This document shows, piece by piece, positions 15,858-36,923 of a stretch of 50,315 nt of DNA. The stretch covers positions 1-50,315 of the forward strand of contig CAZQOY010000001.1 in assembly GCA_964595095.1 (NCBI GenBank), read 5' to 3'. The DNA comes from an uncultured bacterium. GTDB lineage: Bacteria; Fidelibacterota; Marinisomatia; SCGC-AAA003-L08; TS1B11. Every line of letters starts with the position of its first letter. Positions within the stretch are counted from its first letter, which is position 1. The translations under genes and the position numbers were made by a program. The notes under the pieces are model-generated. The model saw nothing but the letters and a program-made list of their open reading frames with translations, searched no databases and was not told where the DNA came from.

Positions 15858-15983
15858 CACCAGGTTGATCGGGTGTAGCGGCTTGACGGCGGCCTGGTGG
15901 AATTTCACAGCTGGAAGTCAGGGGCTTAGACAGGCAAGTGCGAGAGGGAGCGCAGGGAAAATATATTAGGACGCACAATCAAT

Positions 15984-16538
15984 CTAGTGATGAGCAGGAA
16001 TTGCTTCTAGAGCAGGGACATGTTCCTCAAGTGTTGAGGTCTCTGGTACCTCAGTTAACAACTCCATAAGACGGTCCCACTTTCGCTTAAGATACTGCGC
16101 GGTTTCAATGGCTGCGAACAGATTCAATAGGGATATCTTCAACGTTGGATGACGATTTATGAAAAAGTACCCAAGAGCATAAATATATTTTTTGCGAATA
16201 TCTGCTAGAAATTTGTTAGAGGGCTTTTCCAGTTCGTGCTGTAAATACTCTCGCGCTGCAAGGAACCGGCGGTTTCGACGATAGGTTGCTGCAACAAAGA
16301 GTAGACGCCATAAATTAATATTCTTAAGATATCTTATGGTTTTCACAATAGAACTGTCTAAGTATTGGAATACCCAATTCTTCGGGTCGATTTCGCCTTT
16401 CAAGACAGCTTCTCGTAAATCGTCACGAAGTGCATAAAGAGCAAATTGGTGCTGCCGCACGATGGTATCGACACGCATCCTGCGCAGCCTATCAAGGAAA
16501 ATCAGCCCGAGAAGTGCAAATAACCAGAAGTATGCCAT
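15984..16538 (-). CDS. hypothetical N-terminally anchored helical protein (low-GC cassette, gene 2)
   Basis: 184 aa. N-terminal TM MAYFWLFALLGLIFL, then a helical K/R/L-rich body. No family recognised. Hand counts on two 60-nt lines gave about 30-45% G+C. Confidence 0.5.
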   Translation of the reverse strand: MAYFWLFALLGLIFLDRLRRMRVDTIVRQHQFALYALRDDLREAVLKGEIDPKNWVFQYLDSSIVKTIRYLKNINLWRLLFVAATYRRNRRFLAAREYLQHELEKPSNKFLADIRKKYIYALGYFFINRHPTLKISLLNLFAAIETAQYLKRKWDRLMELLTEVPETSTLEEHVPALEAIPAHH

Positions 16539-16567
16539 TGGTTAATCCCTCTTATGCGTTTTTATGC

Positions 16568-16972
16568 TTATGTGTGGTGTAGACCAATATCAATTTTACC
16601 TTCTTGATGATCACTCTTCCAGTCGGCAAGCCGCTTGATTTCATATTCTAGGACGCCAACTCTTTTCTTCCAGTGATAGCGTTGAGCTGCAAGCAACGCT
16701 GCAGCGATGATGCCGAGAATGATCAACGGATAAACCTCGGAAATTCCTACACCTAAAACATATTTCTCAATTATTGCTTGTTTTTGATCAGATGTCGCCC
16801 ATCGTTCAACGGATATGTACGCCAAGATTAGGAATGCTCCCGGCCAGCCAAATCTGTCAATGAGTACACTGAAAAGATCGATCACACCTGAAAGTAATTT
16901 TGAAAGATTCCCAGCTCTACGTCGACTCTTTCTTGATTTTTTTGGGGGGGTCTTAACTGAGGCTTGTCGCAC
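16568..16972 (-). CDS. hypothetical 2-TM protein with basic N-terminus (low-GC cassette, gene 1)
   Basis: 134 aa with a GTG start. N-terminus KTPPKKSRKSRRRAG. Two hydrophobic helices (WPGAFLILAYISV and VYPLIILGIIAAALLAA). No family recognised. Confidence 0.5.
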   Translation of the reverse strand: MRQASVKTPPKKSRKSRRRAGNLSKLLSGVIDLFSVLIDRFGWPGAFLILAYISVERWATSDQKQAIIEKYVLGVGISEVYPLIILGIIAAALLAAQRYHWKKRVGVLEYEIKRLADWKSDHQEGKIDIGLHHT

Positions 16973-17095
16973 TCCCTCTCTTTTTGTTGCTGGCGGTCAA
17001 TTTGAAGTCAACCGACTATTCATACGCTTTCAACTGCCAGGCTTTACTGTAGACGTTGCATTCAGATCTTACAGTATACAACGCGCAGAGCCGTC

Positions 17096-32645: not shown

Positions 32646-33115
32646 GGAATACTCACAGGAACAGGTTGTTTTCCGGTTAGAGCTTGCCAGGCCTGGGCCA
32701 GGGCGGCGGCCACCTGCTCCAGCTCCCGCCGGTCAGCTTCATCAAAGGCCGCAGGGGTGTCGCTGTCCAGGTCCAGGACGCCGACTACCCGCTCCCCGGC
32801 CATAATTGGCACTACGATCTCCGACCGAACCAACAGGCTGCAGGCAATGTAGCGGCTGTCTTCGTGCACGTCATCGATCACCAGCGTCTCACCATCCGTG
32901 GCCGAGACCCCGCAAATCCCGCTGCCCAAGGGGATGCGGGTATGCACGGTGGGCTGGCCCAGGTAGTGGTCATCCTGCAGGGTCAATACGTCCCCCTCCA
33001 GCAGGTAGACCCCCACCCAGTCGTAGTATGGCCGCATGGCCTTCACCCCGGCGATGGCGGTGCGGATGGCAGCATCGAAGGTGGGTTGGGTGAGGATGTC
33101 GTCGGTCAGGGGCAT
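32642..33115 (-). CDS. GAF-domain protein (free methionine-R-sulfoxide reductase MsrC/YebR-like)
   Basis: WVGVYLLEGDVLTL..GICGVSATDGETLVIDDVHEDSRYIAC...SEIVVPI..GERVVGVLDLDS pattern. The stop overlaps the nadC start (ATGA). Confidence 0.7.
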   Translation of the reverse strand: MPLTDDILTQPTFDAAIRTAIAGVKAMRPYYDWVGVYLLEGDVLTLQDDHYLGQPTVHTRIPLGSGICGVSATDGETLVIDDVHEDSRYIACSLLVRSEIVVPIMAGERVVGVLDLDSDTPAAFDEADRRELEQVAAALAQAWQALTGKQPVPVSIP

Positions 33116-33157
33116 AGTGAGGGGAATTTAGGCATTGTTTTGATGAGAGGGAAAGTA

Positions 33158-33220
33158 GTCGGTTGTCAGCAATCAGCGGTCAGCCACATCCAGTATCCGG
33201 TCTACAGTAACAACAACATT
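33158..33220. repeat. phase-locked heptanucleotide tract
   Basis: gtcggtt gtcagca atcagcg gtcagcc acatcca gtatccg gtctaca gtaacaa caacatt. Its reverse complement carries the CTGAYNG units seen in the other tracts. Confidence 0.7.
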
Positions 33221-33370
33221 TTCCTAAAAGCAGTTAAGAGCCGGTTATTTTTAATCAAAACAGCTACCGCTCAGAATAGCCTAATAGTGGTGCTAGAATA
33301 ATGGCGGGTAGCCGAAATCCTTTTTCTCACCAAGAGGTAGGTTAAATATACCCTAACAGGGATCACTTCG

Positions 33371-34234
33371 CTACAAAAGACCGAAAACATAACCAAAGAA
33401 GGCGGTCAGTGCAGCTAAGGCGACCGCACCCAGGATAGCCCAGTACACTTTGGATACCGTAACAGCAGCTCTAATTTTTTCGAGAGTACTTTCAACAGAT
33501 TCCTGTCTGCGTTCAAGTTCCTCGTCGGTTCCTTTTCGAATCTGTTGTTCCATTTTCAAGTCTGAAGTTAGCTCTGTAACACTTTCCTTTAACTCTCTTA
33601 GACCTTCTCTAAATTCATTCCGCCAGCGTTCCCCCTCACGAATCGTTTCTTCAAGTTTTGAAAATCGTTTTTTTAAGCCCTCTATTGTCTCATCGAACTG
33701 CTCGGGCGAAAATGGTGAATACTCCCTCATTAAGGCTACGACTTCATCCGGAAAAGCATTGATAGGATCTGGTTCCTTACGAACTTCTGAAACCTCATTT
33801 GCTTCCAAACGATAGAACATTCCGGCAATGATTTTATTCCCAGGCCTTAGCGGAAATCGTGTACTGGAAAAGTTATAGAGAAGAAGTACCAGCCATCCCT
33901 TATAAAGAGGGTCAACACAGAAACCACCTCCAATGAGAATGCCGCAATGGCTCAATTTTCTCTTGTGGCTCAATTCTACCTTGATGTCATTGGGCAAATT
34001 CAACCTCTCTTGGGATAGAGCAAAAGCCATCTCACCAGGCTCAAGAGCAAGCTCAGCTCTTTCTGCTTCTGAAAGCTTTTCGGTATCTAGTTGCCGCGCA
34101 CCCGCCATAAGAATTTGCGTTCCCATATGAAAATCGTACTTGATCCCTTCGACACTTTCATCCAATCCATTCTCGATAATTTCCCCAGCAGCGACAATTT
34201 CTTGGAGTTCGGGTTCAGTCAGTATCTTCGCCAT
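33371..34234 (-). CDS. Dcd/dUTPase-fold protein fused to a long coiled coil and a C-terminal TM anchor
   Basis: The N-terminal ~165 aa align by eye with dCTP deaminase (ILTEPELQ..G.I.., LEPGEMAFALSQERLNLPNDI, CVDPLYKGWLVLLLYNFSSTRFPLRPGNKIIAGMFY). Then about 100 aa of E/K/R coiled coil, ending VYWAILGAVALAALTAFFGYVFGLL. ATG at 34234 preferred; 34249 is possible. Low-GC segment, about 47% on two hand-counted lines. Confidence 0.7.
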   Translation of the reverse strand: MAKILTEPELQEIVAAGEIIENGLDESVEGIKYDFHMGTQILMAGARQLDTEKLSEAERAELALEPGEMAFALSQERLNLPNDIKVELSHKRKLSHCGILIGGGFCVDPLYKGWLVLLLYNFSSTRFPLRPGNKIIAGMFYRLEANEVSEVRKEPDPINAFPDEVVALMREYSPFSPEQFDETIEGLKKRFSKLEETIREGERWRNEFREGLRELKESVTELTSDLKMEQQIRKGTDEELERRQESVESTLEKIRAAVTVSKVYWAILGAVALAALTAFFGYVFGLL

Positions 34235-34463
34235 TCTGAAGACCCCCATTATTATTATCTTTTACGTTTGAATCGGATGAGCGCAAGAGTGTTCCCTCAC
34301 GCAGAAGCTCTTTAATCCCACTCGTTATTAACCGCTCGGAAGCCTCCGCAGGATTTTTCCCGTACAAACCTGTGTCAACTAACTTATCAAGATAAGCCTG
34401 TACCAGGGGTGTAGTTGAAATCCTTATCTGAACAGTTTGGAGCGAGTTAGGTTTGCGGGCCAT
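34215..34463 (-). CDS. small ribbon-helix-helix-like protein
   Basis: 82 aa. TVQIRISTTPLVQAYLDKLVDTGLYGKNPAEASERLITSGIKELL fits a beta-strand/helix/helix (CopG/Arc-like) layout. The 3' end overlaps the Dcd-like start by about 20 nt. Confidence 0.5.
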   Translation of the reverse strand: MARKPNSLQTVQIRISTTPLVQAYLDKLVDTGLYGKNPAEASERLITSGIKELLREGTLLRSSDSNVKDNNNGGLQNGEDTD

Positions 34464-34541
34464 TGTAAAGACAATCTTATGGCTTACTTATGTCAAAGTT
34501 AAGAAAAATCGAAGGCAATGGGTACATTTAATAGAAAATTC

Positions 34542-35567
34542 TCACCCCAGCGCCTTCGCCACTATCTCCAGGCTGACTTTGTAGCGGTAGTTGATGCCGA
34601 AGTGACCATTGGAGAACTCCTCGTAATGGTAGGGGATGTCCAGGGCTTTGAGGCGCTCGAGGAATATACGCGCTCCCAGGTGCAAGGCATACTCGTCGCG
34701 TTCGCCGGCATCCAGGTAGAGCAGCTTTAGTCCGCGCAGGGCTTTGGCAAACGGCTCCTGCTCCACCATGCGCACCGGGTCGCGGGCCAGCCAGCGCTCC
34801 CATACCTCGGGCGCCAGCTCCCCCGTGGGCAGCTCGAAGGGGAGGCGGGGCTGGTTCCCCTCACCGGAGGAAAGCCCTTCGAAGTCCGGCGAATAGGCCG
34901 CGGCCATGGCGATGATGTTCAGGGTGGGGATAAGGGGCCCTTTCTTCGTGGCCCCGTCGAATTCTTTAAGGAAGCCCTCCACGCCCCCATATTGGTTCAG
35001 GGCATCAACCGTCCTGGGGAAGTCCCGCAGATAGGCGTACTCGAAGTACAGGTCACCACTGTGGCAGGCCGCCGCAGCGAAGAGGTCGGGGTGCTTCATG
35101 GCCAGGGTAAGGGCTCCGTAGCCCCCGCTGGACTTGCCGATGATTCCGCGGCGTTCACTTTCCGCTAGAGTGCGCAGCTCACCATCCACAAAGGGGATGA
35201 CTTCTCTGGCGAGGTAGTCCTCGTAGGGGCCCGTGGCAGGCGAGTTGACGTACTGGCTGCCCCCCAGGCGGGTGAAGCAGTCGGGCATAACCAGGATGAC
35301 CGGCGGGCAGCCGTTGCGCACAATCAGGTCGTCTATCTGCTCGGGGAGGCTTTCCTCCCACACCGAGAAGCCGGCCATGTTCAGGCCGGTGCCGGTAAAG
35401 CCCGCCAGGGCGTATATCACCGGGTAGCGTGTATCACTCTCATCATAGCCCGGCGGCAGGTAGACGGGGAAGGTGCGCACGTGGGGGTCGCCCAGGGGGT
35501 TGCCCTTGAGCAGAGCGCTGTCCAGGGTCAGGTGCTTAACGTAGCCGGATAGGGAGCGGTTGTACAT
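34542..35567 (-). CDS. putative esterase (esterase D / enterochelin-esterase-like alpha/beta hydrolase)
   Basis: YPVIYALAGF, nucleophile elbow GKSSGGYGAL, and the ..CHSGD.. pattern of the PF00756-type esterases. Confidence 0.8.
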   Translation of the reverse strand: MYNRSLSGYVKHLTLDSALLKGNPLGDPHVRTFPVYLPPGYDESDTRYPVIYALAGFTGTGLNMAGFSVWEESLPEQIDDLIVRNGCPPVILVMPDCFTRLGGSQYVNSPATGPYEDYLAREVIPFVDGELRTLAESERRGIIGKSSGGYGALTLAMKHPDLFAAAACHSGDLYFEYAYLRDFPRTVDALNQYGGVEGFLKEFDGATKKGPLIPTLNIIAMAAAYSPDFEGLSSGEGNQPRLPFELPTGELAPEVWERWLARDPVRMVEQEPFAKALRGLKLLYLDAGERDEYALHLGARIFLERLKALDIPYHYEEFSNGHFGINYRYKVSLEIVAKALG

Positions 35568-35786: not shown

Positions 35787-36923
35787 CTAGCCTACCCCTA
35801 GTTTGTGGAGCCAGATTCGGAAGAATCGATCAGCTATGATAGGCGAACCGTTGTCATAGTCGATAACATCACGCTCTAAAAGCGACTGAACGACTCTCTG
35901 TACATTCGAAGGACTCCCTAAGCCATAGCTCTGAATAAAGTCAGCTTCAAAGGGCCTAATTCTACCCGGCTCGTTTGCCAAACCCTTCAAAAAACGCCGC
36001 TGATTCATAGAGAATGATTCCCAGAGGAGTATATAGGCCGTACTCTCACGGTCAAGTAGCGTCTGAACTGCAGCCTCTATCAAATCTGCAGTAACTTCGT
36101 TTGGCTCCTCACACAATTCCCAAAGAACATGACACAGATGCTGGGTATAGAACGGATGCCCTTCGGTTAGGACACAAACTGAACGAATTTGTTTATCGGT
36201 AATCCCTTTGCCCGCATCCTGGAATCTTTTCCGAATGAATGGTAGCCAATGCTTTTCTTTAATGGGACCTAATGGATAATGTCCGGCGGCTCGATAAAGT
36301 GGATGTGATTTGTCGAGAAACATTCTTTTTATCAAGTGTTTCCTGCTGCCGAGAAAAATGTATGATACATTTTCATGCGTCTGGATAATACTCCGCAAGT
36401 ACCTTTCAACAAAATCGCTACCGTACTCTAAAATCTGCTGAAACTCATCAAAGACGATCACTGCATTATGCTTGCGCTTAGCGGCAATTTTAGCTGGAGC
36501 TGCAAGCGCTTCCTCCAGTGATGCCTCCTGTCCGCTTTCTCTCCTGATCCCAAATGTGACCACCGGTCTACCTTCATCGTCAACGGTTACGCTGGGTGCC
36601 AGCTGCCGGAAGAACGCCTTCGCCACATCGAGCATTTTATCAGCAGTCGTGCTCATAGACTGTACAATTGCTTTCGCGGTAGCAGTCGTAAAGGATAGTT
36701 CTCCGTCTGTAGGCAACAGGTCCACGTAGGCACTTAGATATTGTTTTCCCGGCAGTCCTTGAAGAGCCCGCAGGATCAACGAGGTCTTCCCAATTCTCCG
36801 TTCTGAGTAGAGAAACATATTTTGACCATTCTTCATGGCCCCTACCAAGTCTGAAAGTTCATTCTTACGGTTACAGAATGAATCCCCACTGATGACGCTG
36901 CCATATTTAAATGGATTCTTCAT
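35787..36923 (-). CDS. Arch_ATPase-type AAA/STAND-like ATPase with C-terminal winged-helix-like region
   Basis: FCNRKNELSDL...FLYSERRIGKTSL (Walker A), NAVIVFDEFQ (Walker B), and C-terminal GSPSNVQRVVQSLLERDVI. Low GC, about 38% on one hand-counted line. Confidence 0.8.
   Translation of the reverse strand: MKNPFKYGSVISGDSFCNRKNELSDLVGAMKNGQNMFLYSERRIGKTSLILRALQGLPGKQYLSAYVDLLPTDGELSFTTATAKAIVQSMSTTADKMLDVAKAFFRQLAPSVTVDDEGRPVVTFGIRRESGQEASLEEALAAPAKIAAKRKHNAVIVFDEFQQILEYGSDFVERYLRSIIQTHENVSYIFLGSRKHLIKRMFLDKSHPLYRAAGHYPLGPIKEKHWLPFIRKRFQDAGKGITDKQIRSVCVLTEGHPFYTQHLCHVLWELCEEPNEVTADLIEAAVQTLLDRESTAYILLWESFSMNQRRFLKGLANEPGRIRPFEADFIQSYGLGSPSNVQRVVQSLLERDVIDYDNGSPIIADRFFRIWLHKLGVG

Follow-up and report, generated by a model that had tools for sequence, protein, structure and literature searches.

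A low-GC operon of two overlapping genes

The stretch of DNA analysed here, referred to as the window, comprises 50,315 nucleotides (nt) of contig CAZQOY010000001.1 (assembly GCA_964595095.1) from an uncultured bacterium of the Marinisomatia. Our subject is a two-gene operon on its minus strand, the larger gene of which encodes a protein with a dCTP deaminase (DCD)/dUTPase-fold head, a coiled-coil stalk and a C-terminal transmembrane (TM) segment, named DCD-TM in what follows. A sequence-only reading of the window had noticed a low-GC cassette between nadC/GAF and an esterase gene, and had described it as a small ribbon-helix-helix (RHH) protein of 82 amino acids (aa) whose gene overlaps by about 20 nt that of a 287-aa protein carrying a Dcd-like N-terminus, a coiled coil and a membrane anchor. 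This physical description holds for the islet, for its two genes and for the parts of the large protein; the assignment of the small protein to the RHH fold and the functional analogies drawn from the description are weighed further on. The features of the locus are:

~33120..34560, no strand: low-GC islet, seen as a drop in G+C content (GC) and in GC at third codon positions (GC3), between the GAF/nadC/coaBC genes and the esterase gene
34215..34463, minus strand: small gene, 82 aa, encoding a probable DNA-binding autoregulator (open reading frame with 34 homologous clusters)
33371..34234, minus strand: large gene, 287 aa plus stop, encoding the tail-anchored coiled-coil DCD/dUTPase-fold protein DCD-TM (homologue-supported start)
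34243..34247, minus strand: Shine-Dalgarno-like run GGGGG, 8 nt upstream of the large-gene ATG (34234) and within the end of the small gene

Measured in 200-nt windows, the islet (~33,100-34,600) has a GC of 0.40-0.46 as against 0.58-0.69 on both flanks, and the GC3 of its two genes is 0.40-0.42 as against 0.70-0.82 for the esterase, GAF, nadC and coaBC genes; the flanking genes are an esterase (PF00756) on one side and GAF, nadC and coaBC on the other. The islet is filled by two overlapping minus-strand open reading frames (ORFs), 34215..34463 (82 aa) and 33371..34249 (292 aa from its first ATG). The start of the large gene is the second ATG (MAKILT), as in an identical 287-aa database protein and in all close homologues, which begin with MAKILT or MSKILT, and from this start the overlap with the small gene is 20 nt. 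That the Shine-Dalgarno-like run lies inside the end of the small gene suggests that translation of the large gene is coupled to that of the small one. It is firmly established that the islet is a horizontally acquired two-gene operon. Four metagenomic contigs related to the window (L049-L051 and L055) share with it the gene order esterase, cassette, GAF, nadC, coaBC, and since their cassette proteins (82-87% identical to those of the window) and their flanking proteins (78-87%) have diverged to a similar degree, the cassette is older than the split of these genomes; although it predates that split, its GC3 is still low.

A DCD/dUTPase-fold head, a stalk and a membrane anchor

The large protein consists of four parts, given here with their residues and coordinates:

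33785..34234, minus strand: head domain with DCD/dUTPase beta-fold, residues 1-150 (PF22769, confident structure model, Foldseek)
33707..33784, minus strand: linker or putative lid, residues 151-176, with F161-P162, a short helix 163-171 and Y172-x-P174 (conservation and structure model)
33461..33706, minus strand: coiled-coil stalk, residues 177-258 (long helix in the structure model, conservation)
33374..33451, minus strand: C-terminal transmembrane anchor, residues 262-287 (hydropathy analysis)

Pfam DCD (PF22769) matches residues 9-145 of the 292-aa ORF with an E value of 2e-11 and 44.6 bits, well above the cut-off of 27 bits, whereas the match to TIGR02274 (dCTP_deam), at 1.7e-13 and 50.7 bits, stays under the curated equivalog cut-off of 92.8. 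An AlphaFold2 model computed with 29 family members has a mean predicted local distance difference test score (pLDDT) of 85.9, exceeding 90 over the beta-domain, and shows the short helix 163-171 followed by a single uninterrupted helix that spans residues 177-286. The last ~26 residues are hydrophobic and no residues follow them; the protein is predicted to be tail-anchored, with its head in the cytoplasm. Foldseek places two dUTPases, 9ln0 and 8y1w, at the top of the matches of the head (TM-score 0.79-0.84 on target), and matches to Dcd structures are found with a probability of 1.00 and E ~1e-10.

Conservation extends beyond the head. In the linker F161 and Y172 are invariant and P162 and P174 nearly so, and by analogy this segment may be equivalent to the C-terminal lid of Dcd and dUTPases. 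In the stalk, conserved hydrophobic residues recur at a heptad spacing of 3-4 from about residue 184 to 254, and W204, F208, L212, E229 and R233 are invariant or nearly so; on this pattern the stalk is more than mere filler. Only generic coiled-coil families match the stalk in Pfam, PADLOC and NCBIfam, and the PADLOC and NCBIfam matches of the large protein to LeoC, LmuB, JetC, Rad50 and SMC were dismissed as coiled-coil noise. A search of a database of 5.8 billion proteins with the stalk and TM module alone returned nothing at E<=1e-3, family members included, and is therefore uninformative. The exhaustive search also listed short "stalk-only" proteins; these are apparently gene calls truncated at the N-terminus, not stand-alone modules.

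The deaminase residues are replaced and the dUTPase residues are kept

HMMER sequence and profile alignments were used to read the active site, with residue counts taken over 105 aligned family members. Ser111, Arg115, His121 and Glu138 of E. coli Dcd correspond in the family to R92, H96, Leu or Gly at position 102, and Gly or Leu at position 118; the latter position is Gly in 93 of the 105 members and Leu in the subclade of the window. The alignments to E. coli Dcd thus bear out two substitutions that had been proposed by eye, namely Leu in place of the catalytic Glu, and SHKRKLSHCG in place of the GRSSLARLG loop. Deamination is excluded for the whole family, because all four deaminase residues of E. 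coli Dcd are replaced family-wide. The missing Glu is no sign of degeneration, because a residue other than Glu is normal at this position in the closest solved relatives, 9ln0 and 8y1w: E. coli Dcd reads IVLEFYN where the archaeal dUTPases read LTLMLYN. The best sequence matches in the PDB are archaeal DCD-type dUTPases, with E values of 2.4e-11 and 9e-8, and a profile E value of 6e-13.

The residues on which dUTPases depend are conserved. Motif I is present as K32-Y33-D34, with D34 in 104 of 105 members, and motif III as D108-P-x-Y111-x-G113, with D108 in 102 of 105 and Y111 invariant or nearly so across the family; D108 and D34 align with the V-D-P and Y-D-L motifs of 9ln0 and 8y1w. The R-S-S loop of motif II has been replaced by a basic and nearly invariant stretch, K91-R92-K93-L94-S95-H96-x-G98, and several scaffold positions are kept in common with the P. 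furiosus dUTPase P45 (E76, L94, G98, N121, S123, F140, L143 and E147). In dUTPases the motif III Asp positions the nucleophilic water, and its exchange for Asn abolishes catalysis and leaves substrate binding intact (PMC5519681, PMC4827122). Given that the catalytic Asp, the deoxyribose-stacking Tyr and a basic phosphate loop are kept, the head should bind a ligand resembling a deoxynucleoside triphosphate (dNTP), and nucleotide binding is very likely; hydrolysis of a nucleotide is possible, a point on which sequence cannot decide. It had been suggested that the domain binds nucleotides rather than deaminating them. The second half of this statement agrees with the loss of the deaminase residues, but binding without acting on the ligand does not follow, because the catalytic Asp of dUTPases is kept.

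A rare and scattered family

A word-indexed search yielded 115 clusters of DCD-TM proteins, nearly all of 280-340 aa, and an exhaustive HMMER search of 1.84 billion proteins yielded 113 representative clusters at E<=1e-30. It is firmly established that the family is rare, widely scattered and so far unnamed. Its architecture is constant: one C-terminal TM is present in 104 of 106 full-length members, at the very end in 87, and a TM follows the head in 169 of the 178 proteins that have a complete head and at least 90 further residues. Where the TM is missing, as in P0010 and P0011 (at L052:6001-7590 and L045:6001-7592, respectively), the adjacent downstream gene, which in L045 overlaps by 4 nt, encodes a protein of 253 aa with two TMs, and the pair looks like a split version of the head-stalk and anchor arrangement; the 253-aa partner has no detectable relatives in the PDB. 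Two further variants were seen. In P0276 and P0283 (~455 aa) tandem DCD heads precede a coiled coil, and the hydrophobic stretch at the C-terminus is long enough to accommodate two TMs; members of a sister clade (P0257, P0258, P0265, P0267, P0273 and P0277; 337-376 aa) combine a DCD head with a longer coiled coil and a TM, after which comes a tail rich in Pro, Ser and Thr. Homologues are named "dCTP deaminase" or "dUTPase" in several sources.

The family is spread patchily over more than 10 phyla; 35 genome loci lie in Parcubacteria, Eisenbacteria, Planctomycetota, Bacteroidota, Acidobacteriota, Alpha-, Beta- and Gammaproteobacteria and Bacillota. With few exceptions the GC of the gene is below that of the DNA around it; two examples are 0.50 versus 0.66 and 0.49 versus 0.68. 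In a cultured carrier, Kordiimonas sp. SCSIO 12610 (WP_255936179.1), a solitary copy is flanked by a helicase gene and rpmB. Searches of 50,697 cultured phage genomes and 72,556 plasmids brought up no homologue of full length, and BFVD gave domain-level matches only. A search for conserved neighbours at 42 loci revealed no conserved partner, the recurring ORFs being antisense shadows inside the gene itself.

The sequence-only reading had asked for a survey of the surroundings, and the survey gives a mixed picture. Some neighbours belong to toxin-antitoxin systems or resemble the cyclic-oligonucleotide-based antiphage signalling system (CBASS), OLD/Gabija or Rosmer, whereas most are housekeeping genes. 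Relatives with 57-58% identity adjoin Fic, BrnT/BrnA and NYN genes. Among 212 flanking genes there are scattered transposases, HTH_3 regulators, RadC and AAA_15, and about 10-20 match PADLOC models (among them OLD/GajA-type ATPases, RmrA-like helix-turn-helix (HTH) peptidases, mad2/mad3 and PDC candidates), a raw count that is suggestive only. No nucleotide-metabolism genes occur among the scanned neighbours. One copy (L137:5250-13804) sits in an integrative element together with a serine recombinase, DUF932, a SMODS nucleotidyltransferase and S_4TM pair and a TrwB/DUF87-like coupling protein; the SMODS and S_4TM pair amounts to a minimal CBASS-like system. At three loci (L021:9195-10217, L039:9266-10222 and L040:8917-9909) DCD-TM is adjoined by a ~330-aa protein (phrog_25593), which has no PDB relative and matches unannotated phage records only.

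A relative with SIR2 in place of the anchor

Abortive-infection sensor-effector proteins classically have two interchangeable outputs, SIR2 NADases and TM segments. We find that both occur behind the same type of head. P0217, of 512 aa, begins with a DCD head of this family and continues into a SIR2_2 domain (Pfam PF13289, precomputed match). The head shares 55% identity with the TM-type protein P0192 over 210 aa, a stretch that includes the first turns of the stalk, and 33% with the window protein. Against the PDB its SIR2 domain matches FAM118B at 4e-8 and Thoeris ThsA at 5e-6. P0217 is not an assembly artefact, because it is found on five contigs, of which the three shown come from three samples (L145:1074-2612, L146 and L147); there it adjoins a NikA-like gene. 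One head type is accordingly joined to two outputs, a TM segment in P0192 and the window protein, or SIR2 in P0217, and the DCD-SIR2 fusion is in itself a candidate single-gene defence system.

The small protein and its putative operator

The 82-aa ORF, the conservation of which had been in question, is a real gene, with 34 homologous clusters and 178 confirmed metagenome stretches. Its product has a basic and nearly invariant MARKPN N-terminus, a strand-like segment VQI(R/T)(I/V)S (VQIRIS in the window) and a disordered acidic tail that is not conserved even among DCD-linked copies; S16, T17, L25, T31, G32, L33, Y34, G35, K36, N37, A39, R44 and L45 are invariant. In the AlphaFold2 monomer, residues 1-18 are extended and helices 19-31 and 38-56 are separated by a TGLYGKN turn; a strand at the N-terminus would be expected only in the dimer. 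The earlier assignment to RHH/CopG is supported neither by profiles nor by fold searches: among 30 small-protein members there is no match to a Pfam family, including the RHH families at E<=5, comparison with PDB profiles yields nothing significant (the best E value, 0.03, belongs to an unrelated protein), and Foldseek returns no match with E<1 for the model. The RHH fold is unproven; the modelled beta-alpha-alpha pattern and the operator described below would be compatible with an RHH repressor.

The upstream region of the small gene contains the following elements:

34470..34502, minus strand: promoter/operator of the small gene (hexamers identified by eye; not called by the sigma-70 scan)
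34502-34497, minus strand: -35-like TTAACT, 17-nt spacer to the -10
34479-34474, minus strand: -10-like TAAGAT, inside an imperfect inverted repeat
34483-34470, minus strand: imperfect inverted repeat GCCATAAGATTGTC, wrapping the -10-like hexamer

A generic sigma-70 and terminator scan of the islet called neither a minus-strand promoter nor a terminator. The small gene has no Shine-Dalgarno sequence, and its mRNA is predicted to be nearly leaderless, because only 10 nt separate the -10 from the ATG. All 27 distinct sequences upstream of homologues contain the inverted repeat GCCA-N6-TG(G/T)C, which starts at -20 in 26 of them and takes the strict form GCCA-N6-TGGC in 22, as against ~0.004 per sequence expected by chance; the 27 sequences are not all phylogenetically independent, and the element recurs in at least five unrelated operon contexts. 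Each time it wraps an A/T-rich -10-like hexamer (TATTAT, TAAGAT, TAGGAA, TGTTAT), and more divergent small-gene contexts keep variants of it. The small protein probably binds DNA at this palindrome.

The gene of every close homologue of the large protein (57-87% identity) is immediately preceded by the small gene, in two chromosomal contexts, and the small gene is absent from 42 of 42 loci of more distant members. Of the 93 loci that carry a small-protein homologue, 81 allowed the downstream gene to be called:

56/81 loci: 133-aa stand-alone receiver domain
16/81 loci: DCD-TM
5/81 loci: unassigned short ORFs
2/81 loci: MotA/ExbB-like protein (by eye)
1/81 loci: MinC-like protein (by eye)
1/81 loci: 234-aa protein, then an AAA ATPase and HhH-GPD, beside an integrase

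The most frequent arrangement, seen at L047:748-1388 and 55 further loci (L062-L127), has a perfect GCCATTATTATGGC palindrome at -20 of the small-protein homologue, whose gene overlaps by 4 nt that of the 133-aa stand-alone response-regulator receiver domain; operons of this type are abundant in the retrieved metagenome contigs (JGI Ga.../JGI... and whole-genome shotgun records). At L054:59-5200, beside a tyrosine integrase, the small-protein homologue heads an operon with a 234-aa protein that by eye resembles a nucleoside deoxyribosyltransferase, an AAA ATPase of 645 aa and an HhH-GPD glycosylase, a nucleotide- and DNA-related cargo under the same regulator. It is firmly established that the small gene leads operons in a modular way and brings with it a conserved palindrome at its promoter. 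In the simplest interpretation, the small gene and the palindrome would form a portable promoter-operator-autorepressor unit driving different cargo genes, and the portability of this unit argues against a partner-specific antitoxin.

Copies on phage contigs

The DCD-TM gene occurs on 7 of 2.9 million IMG/VR contigs, and a second scan with phage-type sequences gave the same seven. On two temperate-phage contigs DCD-TM lies directly upstream of an endolysin gene (regions L037:7983-9418 and L041:8001-9398), in the order anti-repressor/Rha (Ant/Rha), two small ORFs, DCD-TM, endolysin, further genes, terminase and portal. The two endolysins come from different families, a phrog_822 amidase (9.7e-30) and a phrog_465 endolysin (1.4e-36), and the two matches to Amidase_2 among the 212 scanned neighbours of the family are consistent with them. 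L042 has the same module order, with a 128-aa gene downstream of DCD-TM, for which we find no PDB relatives, no informative annotated-phage match and no similarity to the L041 endolysin. On L036 and L038 its neighbours are a tail gene on one side and an HTH-metalloprotease regulator on the other, which is a typical moron position. For the C-terminal half of the window protein there is a weak match to phrog_937 ("hemolysin", E 3e-5) that runs over its whole length. Homology of this half to XhlA or holins was considered and rejected, Pfam having found generic coiled-coil families only, and the likeness to lysis membrane proteins is treated as an architectural analogy.

Other accessory genes in the window and in related contigs

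The slot between esterase and GAF also holds, in L049 (4090-5317) and likewise in L050, L051 and L055, an overlapping pair that encodes a 95-aa protein and a 316-aa DUF3800 protein, with a GC of 0.34. Just past the esterase, the window itself has a second GC-poor islet (35787-36923, minus strand; GC ~0.40-0.50) with a gene for a 378-aa ATPase_2 protein (PF01637, "archaeal ATPase"), which weakly matches the PADLOC candidate PDC-S27 (1.5e-5) and phrog_6841 and is absent from the related contig L049. Given the extra pair in the relatives and the separate ATPase_2 gene in the window, this neighbourhood is a small hot spot for accessory cassettes. No tRNA was found in the window, no integrase flanking the first islet, and no flanking direct repeats marking an integration site in a repeat search around it. 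A third GC-poor islet (15950-17050, minus strand; GC ~0.41-0.46 against 0.6 in the flanks) sits between genes that look like pyruvate phosphate dikinase and FliG (both by eye from translations) and encodes two small predicted membrane proteins, of 184 aa (15984..16538) and 134 aa (16568..16972).

Discussion

We propose that DCD-TM is an autoregulated, nucleotide-responsive single-protein sensor-effector that acts at the membrane in phage-host conflict, a reading to which we assign a probability of roughly 0.4. On the one hand, the small protein would most likely bind the GCCA-N6-TG(G/T)C palindrome around its own -10 box and repress the operon; on the other hand, the large protein would combine sensing and output in one chain. 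The head, trimeric by homology, would bind a dNTP-like ligand and perhaps hydrolyse it, and the putative lid (F161-P162 to Y172-x-P174) would relay to the stalk whether nucleotide occupies the trimer interfaces. The stalk could then change the state of the membrane anchor, leading to membrane damage, growth arrest or lysis, and in P0217 the output would be a SIR2 NADase in place of the anchor. The setting would be abortive infection in cells and possibly the control of lysis in the few phages that carry the gene. We consider unlikely the extended form of this proposal, in which the head is an immune sensor that reads the deoxynucleotide pool directly (e.g. dUTP, phage hydroxymethyl-dUTP or hydroxymethyl-dCTP, or dNTP collapse) and gates a membrane lesion or a SIR2 NADase via lid and stalk, with some temperate phages borrowing the device to couple lysis to the state of DNA replication.

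Several points weigh against the sensor-effector proposal. The retained catalytic Asp would suit an enzyme no less than a sensor, and the trimer and the coupling of lid to stalk are argued from homology and analogy; likewise, binding of the small protein to DNA is deduced from the operator motif alone. The SIR2 fusion is a single cluster at 50% identity among ~178 complete-head proteins. PADLOC, NCBIfam and PHROGs scans of both proteins gave no defence-system model for either, the 212 flanking genes are mostly unrelated housekeeping genes, and enrichment in defence islands is unproven. As to the part in lysis, the adjacency to endolysin genes comes from one group of related phages, L037, L041 and L042 each encode a further small protein, with a coiled coil and an N-terminal TM, which may be the true holin or spanin, and Pfam XhlA matches 0 of 30 C-terminal halves of family members, which hit generic coiled-coil families only. 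Moreover, the slot between late regulator and lysis genes is also a common site for morons.

A question remains, is the protein an enzyme instead? DCD-TM could be a catalytic effector, that is, an active dUTPase-type dNTP pyrophosphatase held at the membrane, whose stalk and anchor only localise or sequester it; it might deplete a pyrimidine dNTP and so starve the phage, or remove dUTP or a modified dNTP on behalf of a mobile element. The closest solved relatives are true dUTPases, D108, D34 and the motif III Tyr and Gly vary hardly or not at all, catalysis is ascribed to the motif III Asp in the literature (PMC5519681, PMC4827122), the many invariant charged residues of the head are typical of an active site, and nucleotide depletion is an established defence strategy (bioRxiv 10.1101/2021.04.26.441389). 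The motif II serines, however, are replaced by R92 and K93, the equivalent of Arg115 is His, and dUTPase motif V is missing from the family, as it is from all DCD-type enzymes. A role confined to localisation leaves unexplained the invariant W204, F208, L212, E229 and R233 of the stalk and the presence of SIR2 in place of stalk and anchor in a close relative; nor do nucleotide-metabolism genes lie near the family loci. We regard the catalytic effector as somewhat unlikely, though it is the alternative that survives best.

The position beside endolysin genes raises a second alternative, in which DCD-TM is a holin-like or holin-accessory protein that times or licenses endolysin release, and the chromosomal copies are prophage remnants or domesticated lysis genes silenced by the small repressor. 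DCD-TM lies directly upstream of the endolysin in L037 and L041, with the same module order in L042, the L041 endolysin has no obvious N-terminal signal sequence (first residues read by eye), the C-terminal half has its weak phrog_937 "hemolysin" match, and in L036 and L038 the gene is beside a tail gene. Yet the seven IMG/VR contigs and the absence from cultured phage genomes make this a rare phage gene, the downstream gene of L042 is not confirmed as an endolysin, and no lysis genes occur near chromosomal copies, Amidase_2 being confined to two of the 212 neighbours. The XhlA result and the other holin or spanin candidates of the three phages count against it as well, and the SIR2 variant does not fit. 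A dedicated lysis protein is therefore quite unlikely in our view.

Still less can be said for a type II toxin-antitoxin system, an idea that the sequence-only reading had entertained. In such a system DCD-TM would be a toxin acting on the membrane, and the small protein an RHH antitoxin that counters it and autoregulates their operon. The layout is suggestive: a small gene precedes a larger one and shares 20 nt with it, the promoter coincides with an operator-like palindrome, the pair is kept in all close homologues in two chromosomal contexts, and in one of these BrnT/BrnA and Fic are neighbours. However, the small gene is missing at all 42 distant-member loci, its conserved core is found mainly with a receiver domain (56 loci), which indicates a function independent of the partner, the C-terminal tail, the usual toxin-binding part, is not conserved, and no RHH or antitoxin profile matches. 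We rate this alternative as very unlikely. That DCD-TM is a housekeeping paralogue of pyrimidine metabolism, an ordinary Dcd or Dut, is extremely unlikely: the DCD domain is genuine and homologues bear the names "dCTP deaminase" and "dUTPase", but all deaminase catalytic residues are replaced, TIGR02274 reaches 50.7 of the 92.8 bits demanded, a stalk and a membrane anchor have been added, and the family is rare, patchy and of foreign GC, with no nucleotide-metabolism genes nearby.

The sensor-effector proposal thus keeps part of what had been suggested for the cassette. A role in conflict or defence is plausible, but the rationale originally offered fails, since the anti-phage dCTP-deaminase effectors invoked as an analogy consist of a zinc cytidine-deaminase and a kinase and have a different fold. 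The statement that the architecture was undescribed stands: in Pfam, NCBIfam, PADLOC, PHROGs, the PDB, BFVD and the searchable literature we found no account of a head of DCD/dUTPase fold that is followed by a coiled coil and a TM, or by SIR2. The kind of system is already known, namely ligand-binding sensors with swappable TM or SIR2 effectors; it is the sensing fold that would be new. If the head is a ligand-gated switch, the dUTPase-superfamily fold would join SLOG, SAVED, CARF and Macro as a sensor in prokaryotic immunity, a metabolic enzyme fold would constitute a new class of infection sensor, and this sensor would read a primary metabolite pool and not a dedicated second messenger. It would also extend the moonlighting dUTPase as a signalling switch from staphylococcal phages to a membrane effector. 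More than 100 protein clusters bear the names "dCTP deaminase" or "dUTPase" and yet, judging from their residues, cannot deaminate, and the label should be corrected. The small regulator and its portable GCCA-N6-TGGC promoter/operator are a possible genetic part and a marker for cargo genes, and the cultured Kordiimonas carrier makes these questions directly testable.

Comparison with known systems

The archaeal DCD-type dUTPases (P. furiosus P45, 9ln0/9ln3, and the T. pacificus dUTPase with dUMP, 8y1w) are the best matches of DCD-TM in both sequence and fold, and share with it motif I Y-D-(L/F), motif III V-D-P...G and L-Y-N-x-S; they have Met at the position of the Dcd catalytic Glu, which is a non-Glu residue in DCD-TM too. 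Unlike DCD-TM, they are soluble proteins of ~155 aa with neither stalk nor anchor, their phosphate loop reads R-S-S-L-A-R-E-G where that of DCD-TM reads K-R-K-L-S-H-x-G, the aromatic residue of motif III is Trp and not Tyr, and they are housekeeping enzymes whereas DCD-TM is a rare accessory bacterial gene. Dcd and the bifunctional Dcd:Dut enzymes (E. coli 1xs1, M. tuberculosis 2qlp, M. jannaschii 1ogh) have in common with it the beta-fold, membership of a trimer family and Pfam DCD, and differ in that DCD-TM has replaced the catalytic residues, added stalk and TM, and stands in a non-metabolic genomic context.

The small protein resembles RHH proteins (CopG/Arc/MetJ) in size, in its basic N-terminal arm, in the strand-like "VQIRIS/VQITVS" segment followed by two helices with a Gly-containing turn, and in having an operator-like palindrome over its own promoter, but Pfam, PDB and Foldseek matches are absent. 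Its TGLYGKN inter-helix turn looks longer than that of RHH proteins. XhlA-type proteins and holins show the same topology as the large protein, a cytoplasmic coiled coil and one C-terminal TM, and DCD-TM shares their position directly upstream of the endolysin in L037 and L041; it differs from them in its 150-residue enzyme-like head and in that most copies are not in phages.

With the defensive dCTP deaminases and AvcD, DCD-TM shares only the enzyme name and the theme of defence through the deoxynucleotide pool, the folds being unrelated: a defensive dCTP deaminase has a zinc-dependent cytidine-deaminase domain and an N-terminal kinase domain (Tal et al., bioRxiv 10.1101/2021.04.26.441389). 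The PADLOC models of these proteins do not match the large protein, and it has no Pfam match to a zinc cytidine-deaminase or kinase. The "dUTPase" candidate of DefensePredictor was also considered and set aside, being a nucleotide-modification cluster of MazG-C kinase, dUTPase and aGPT-Pplase with a different architecture.

That a trimer of dUTPase fold can control, through its nucleotide state, an output outside metabolism in the conflict of phage and host has a precedent in staphylococcal phages, whose trimeric dUTPases act as signalling switches that derepress Staphylococcus aureus pathogenicity islands (SaPIs) through Stl (PMC5593958). These are classical Dut proteins with motifs IV-VI, soluble, which bind a repressor, and they are related to DCD-TM at the superfamily level only. 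The closest counterparts in organisation are the SIR2-SLOG protein ThsA, the macro-domain ThsA effectors (PMC11204291) and the TM effectors of Pycsar and CBASS, in which, as is proposed here, a cytoplasmic ligand-binding domain is joined to a TM or SIR2 output; mobile and patchily distributed genes are likewise common to DCD-TM and the sensor-effector proteins of abortive infection. DCD-TM, known from sequence alone, differs from them in having no conserved adjacent signal-generating enzyme and in its single TM at the end of a long coiled coil, and where the known systems sense with SLOG, Macro, SAVED or CARF domains, the sensing domain here would be a dUTPase/DCD fold.

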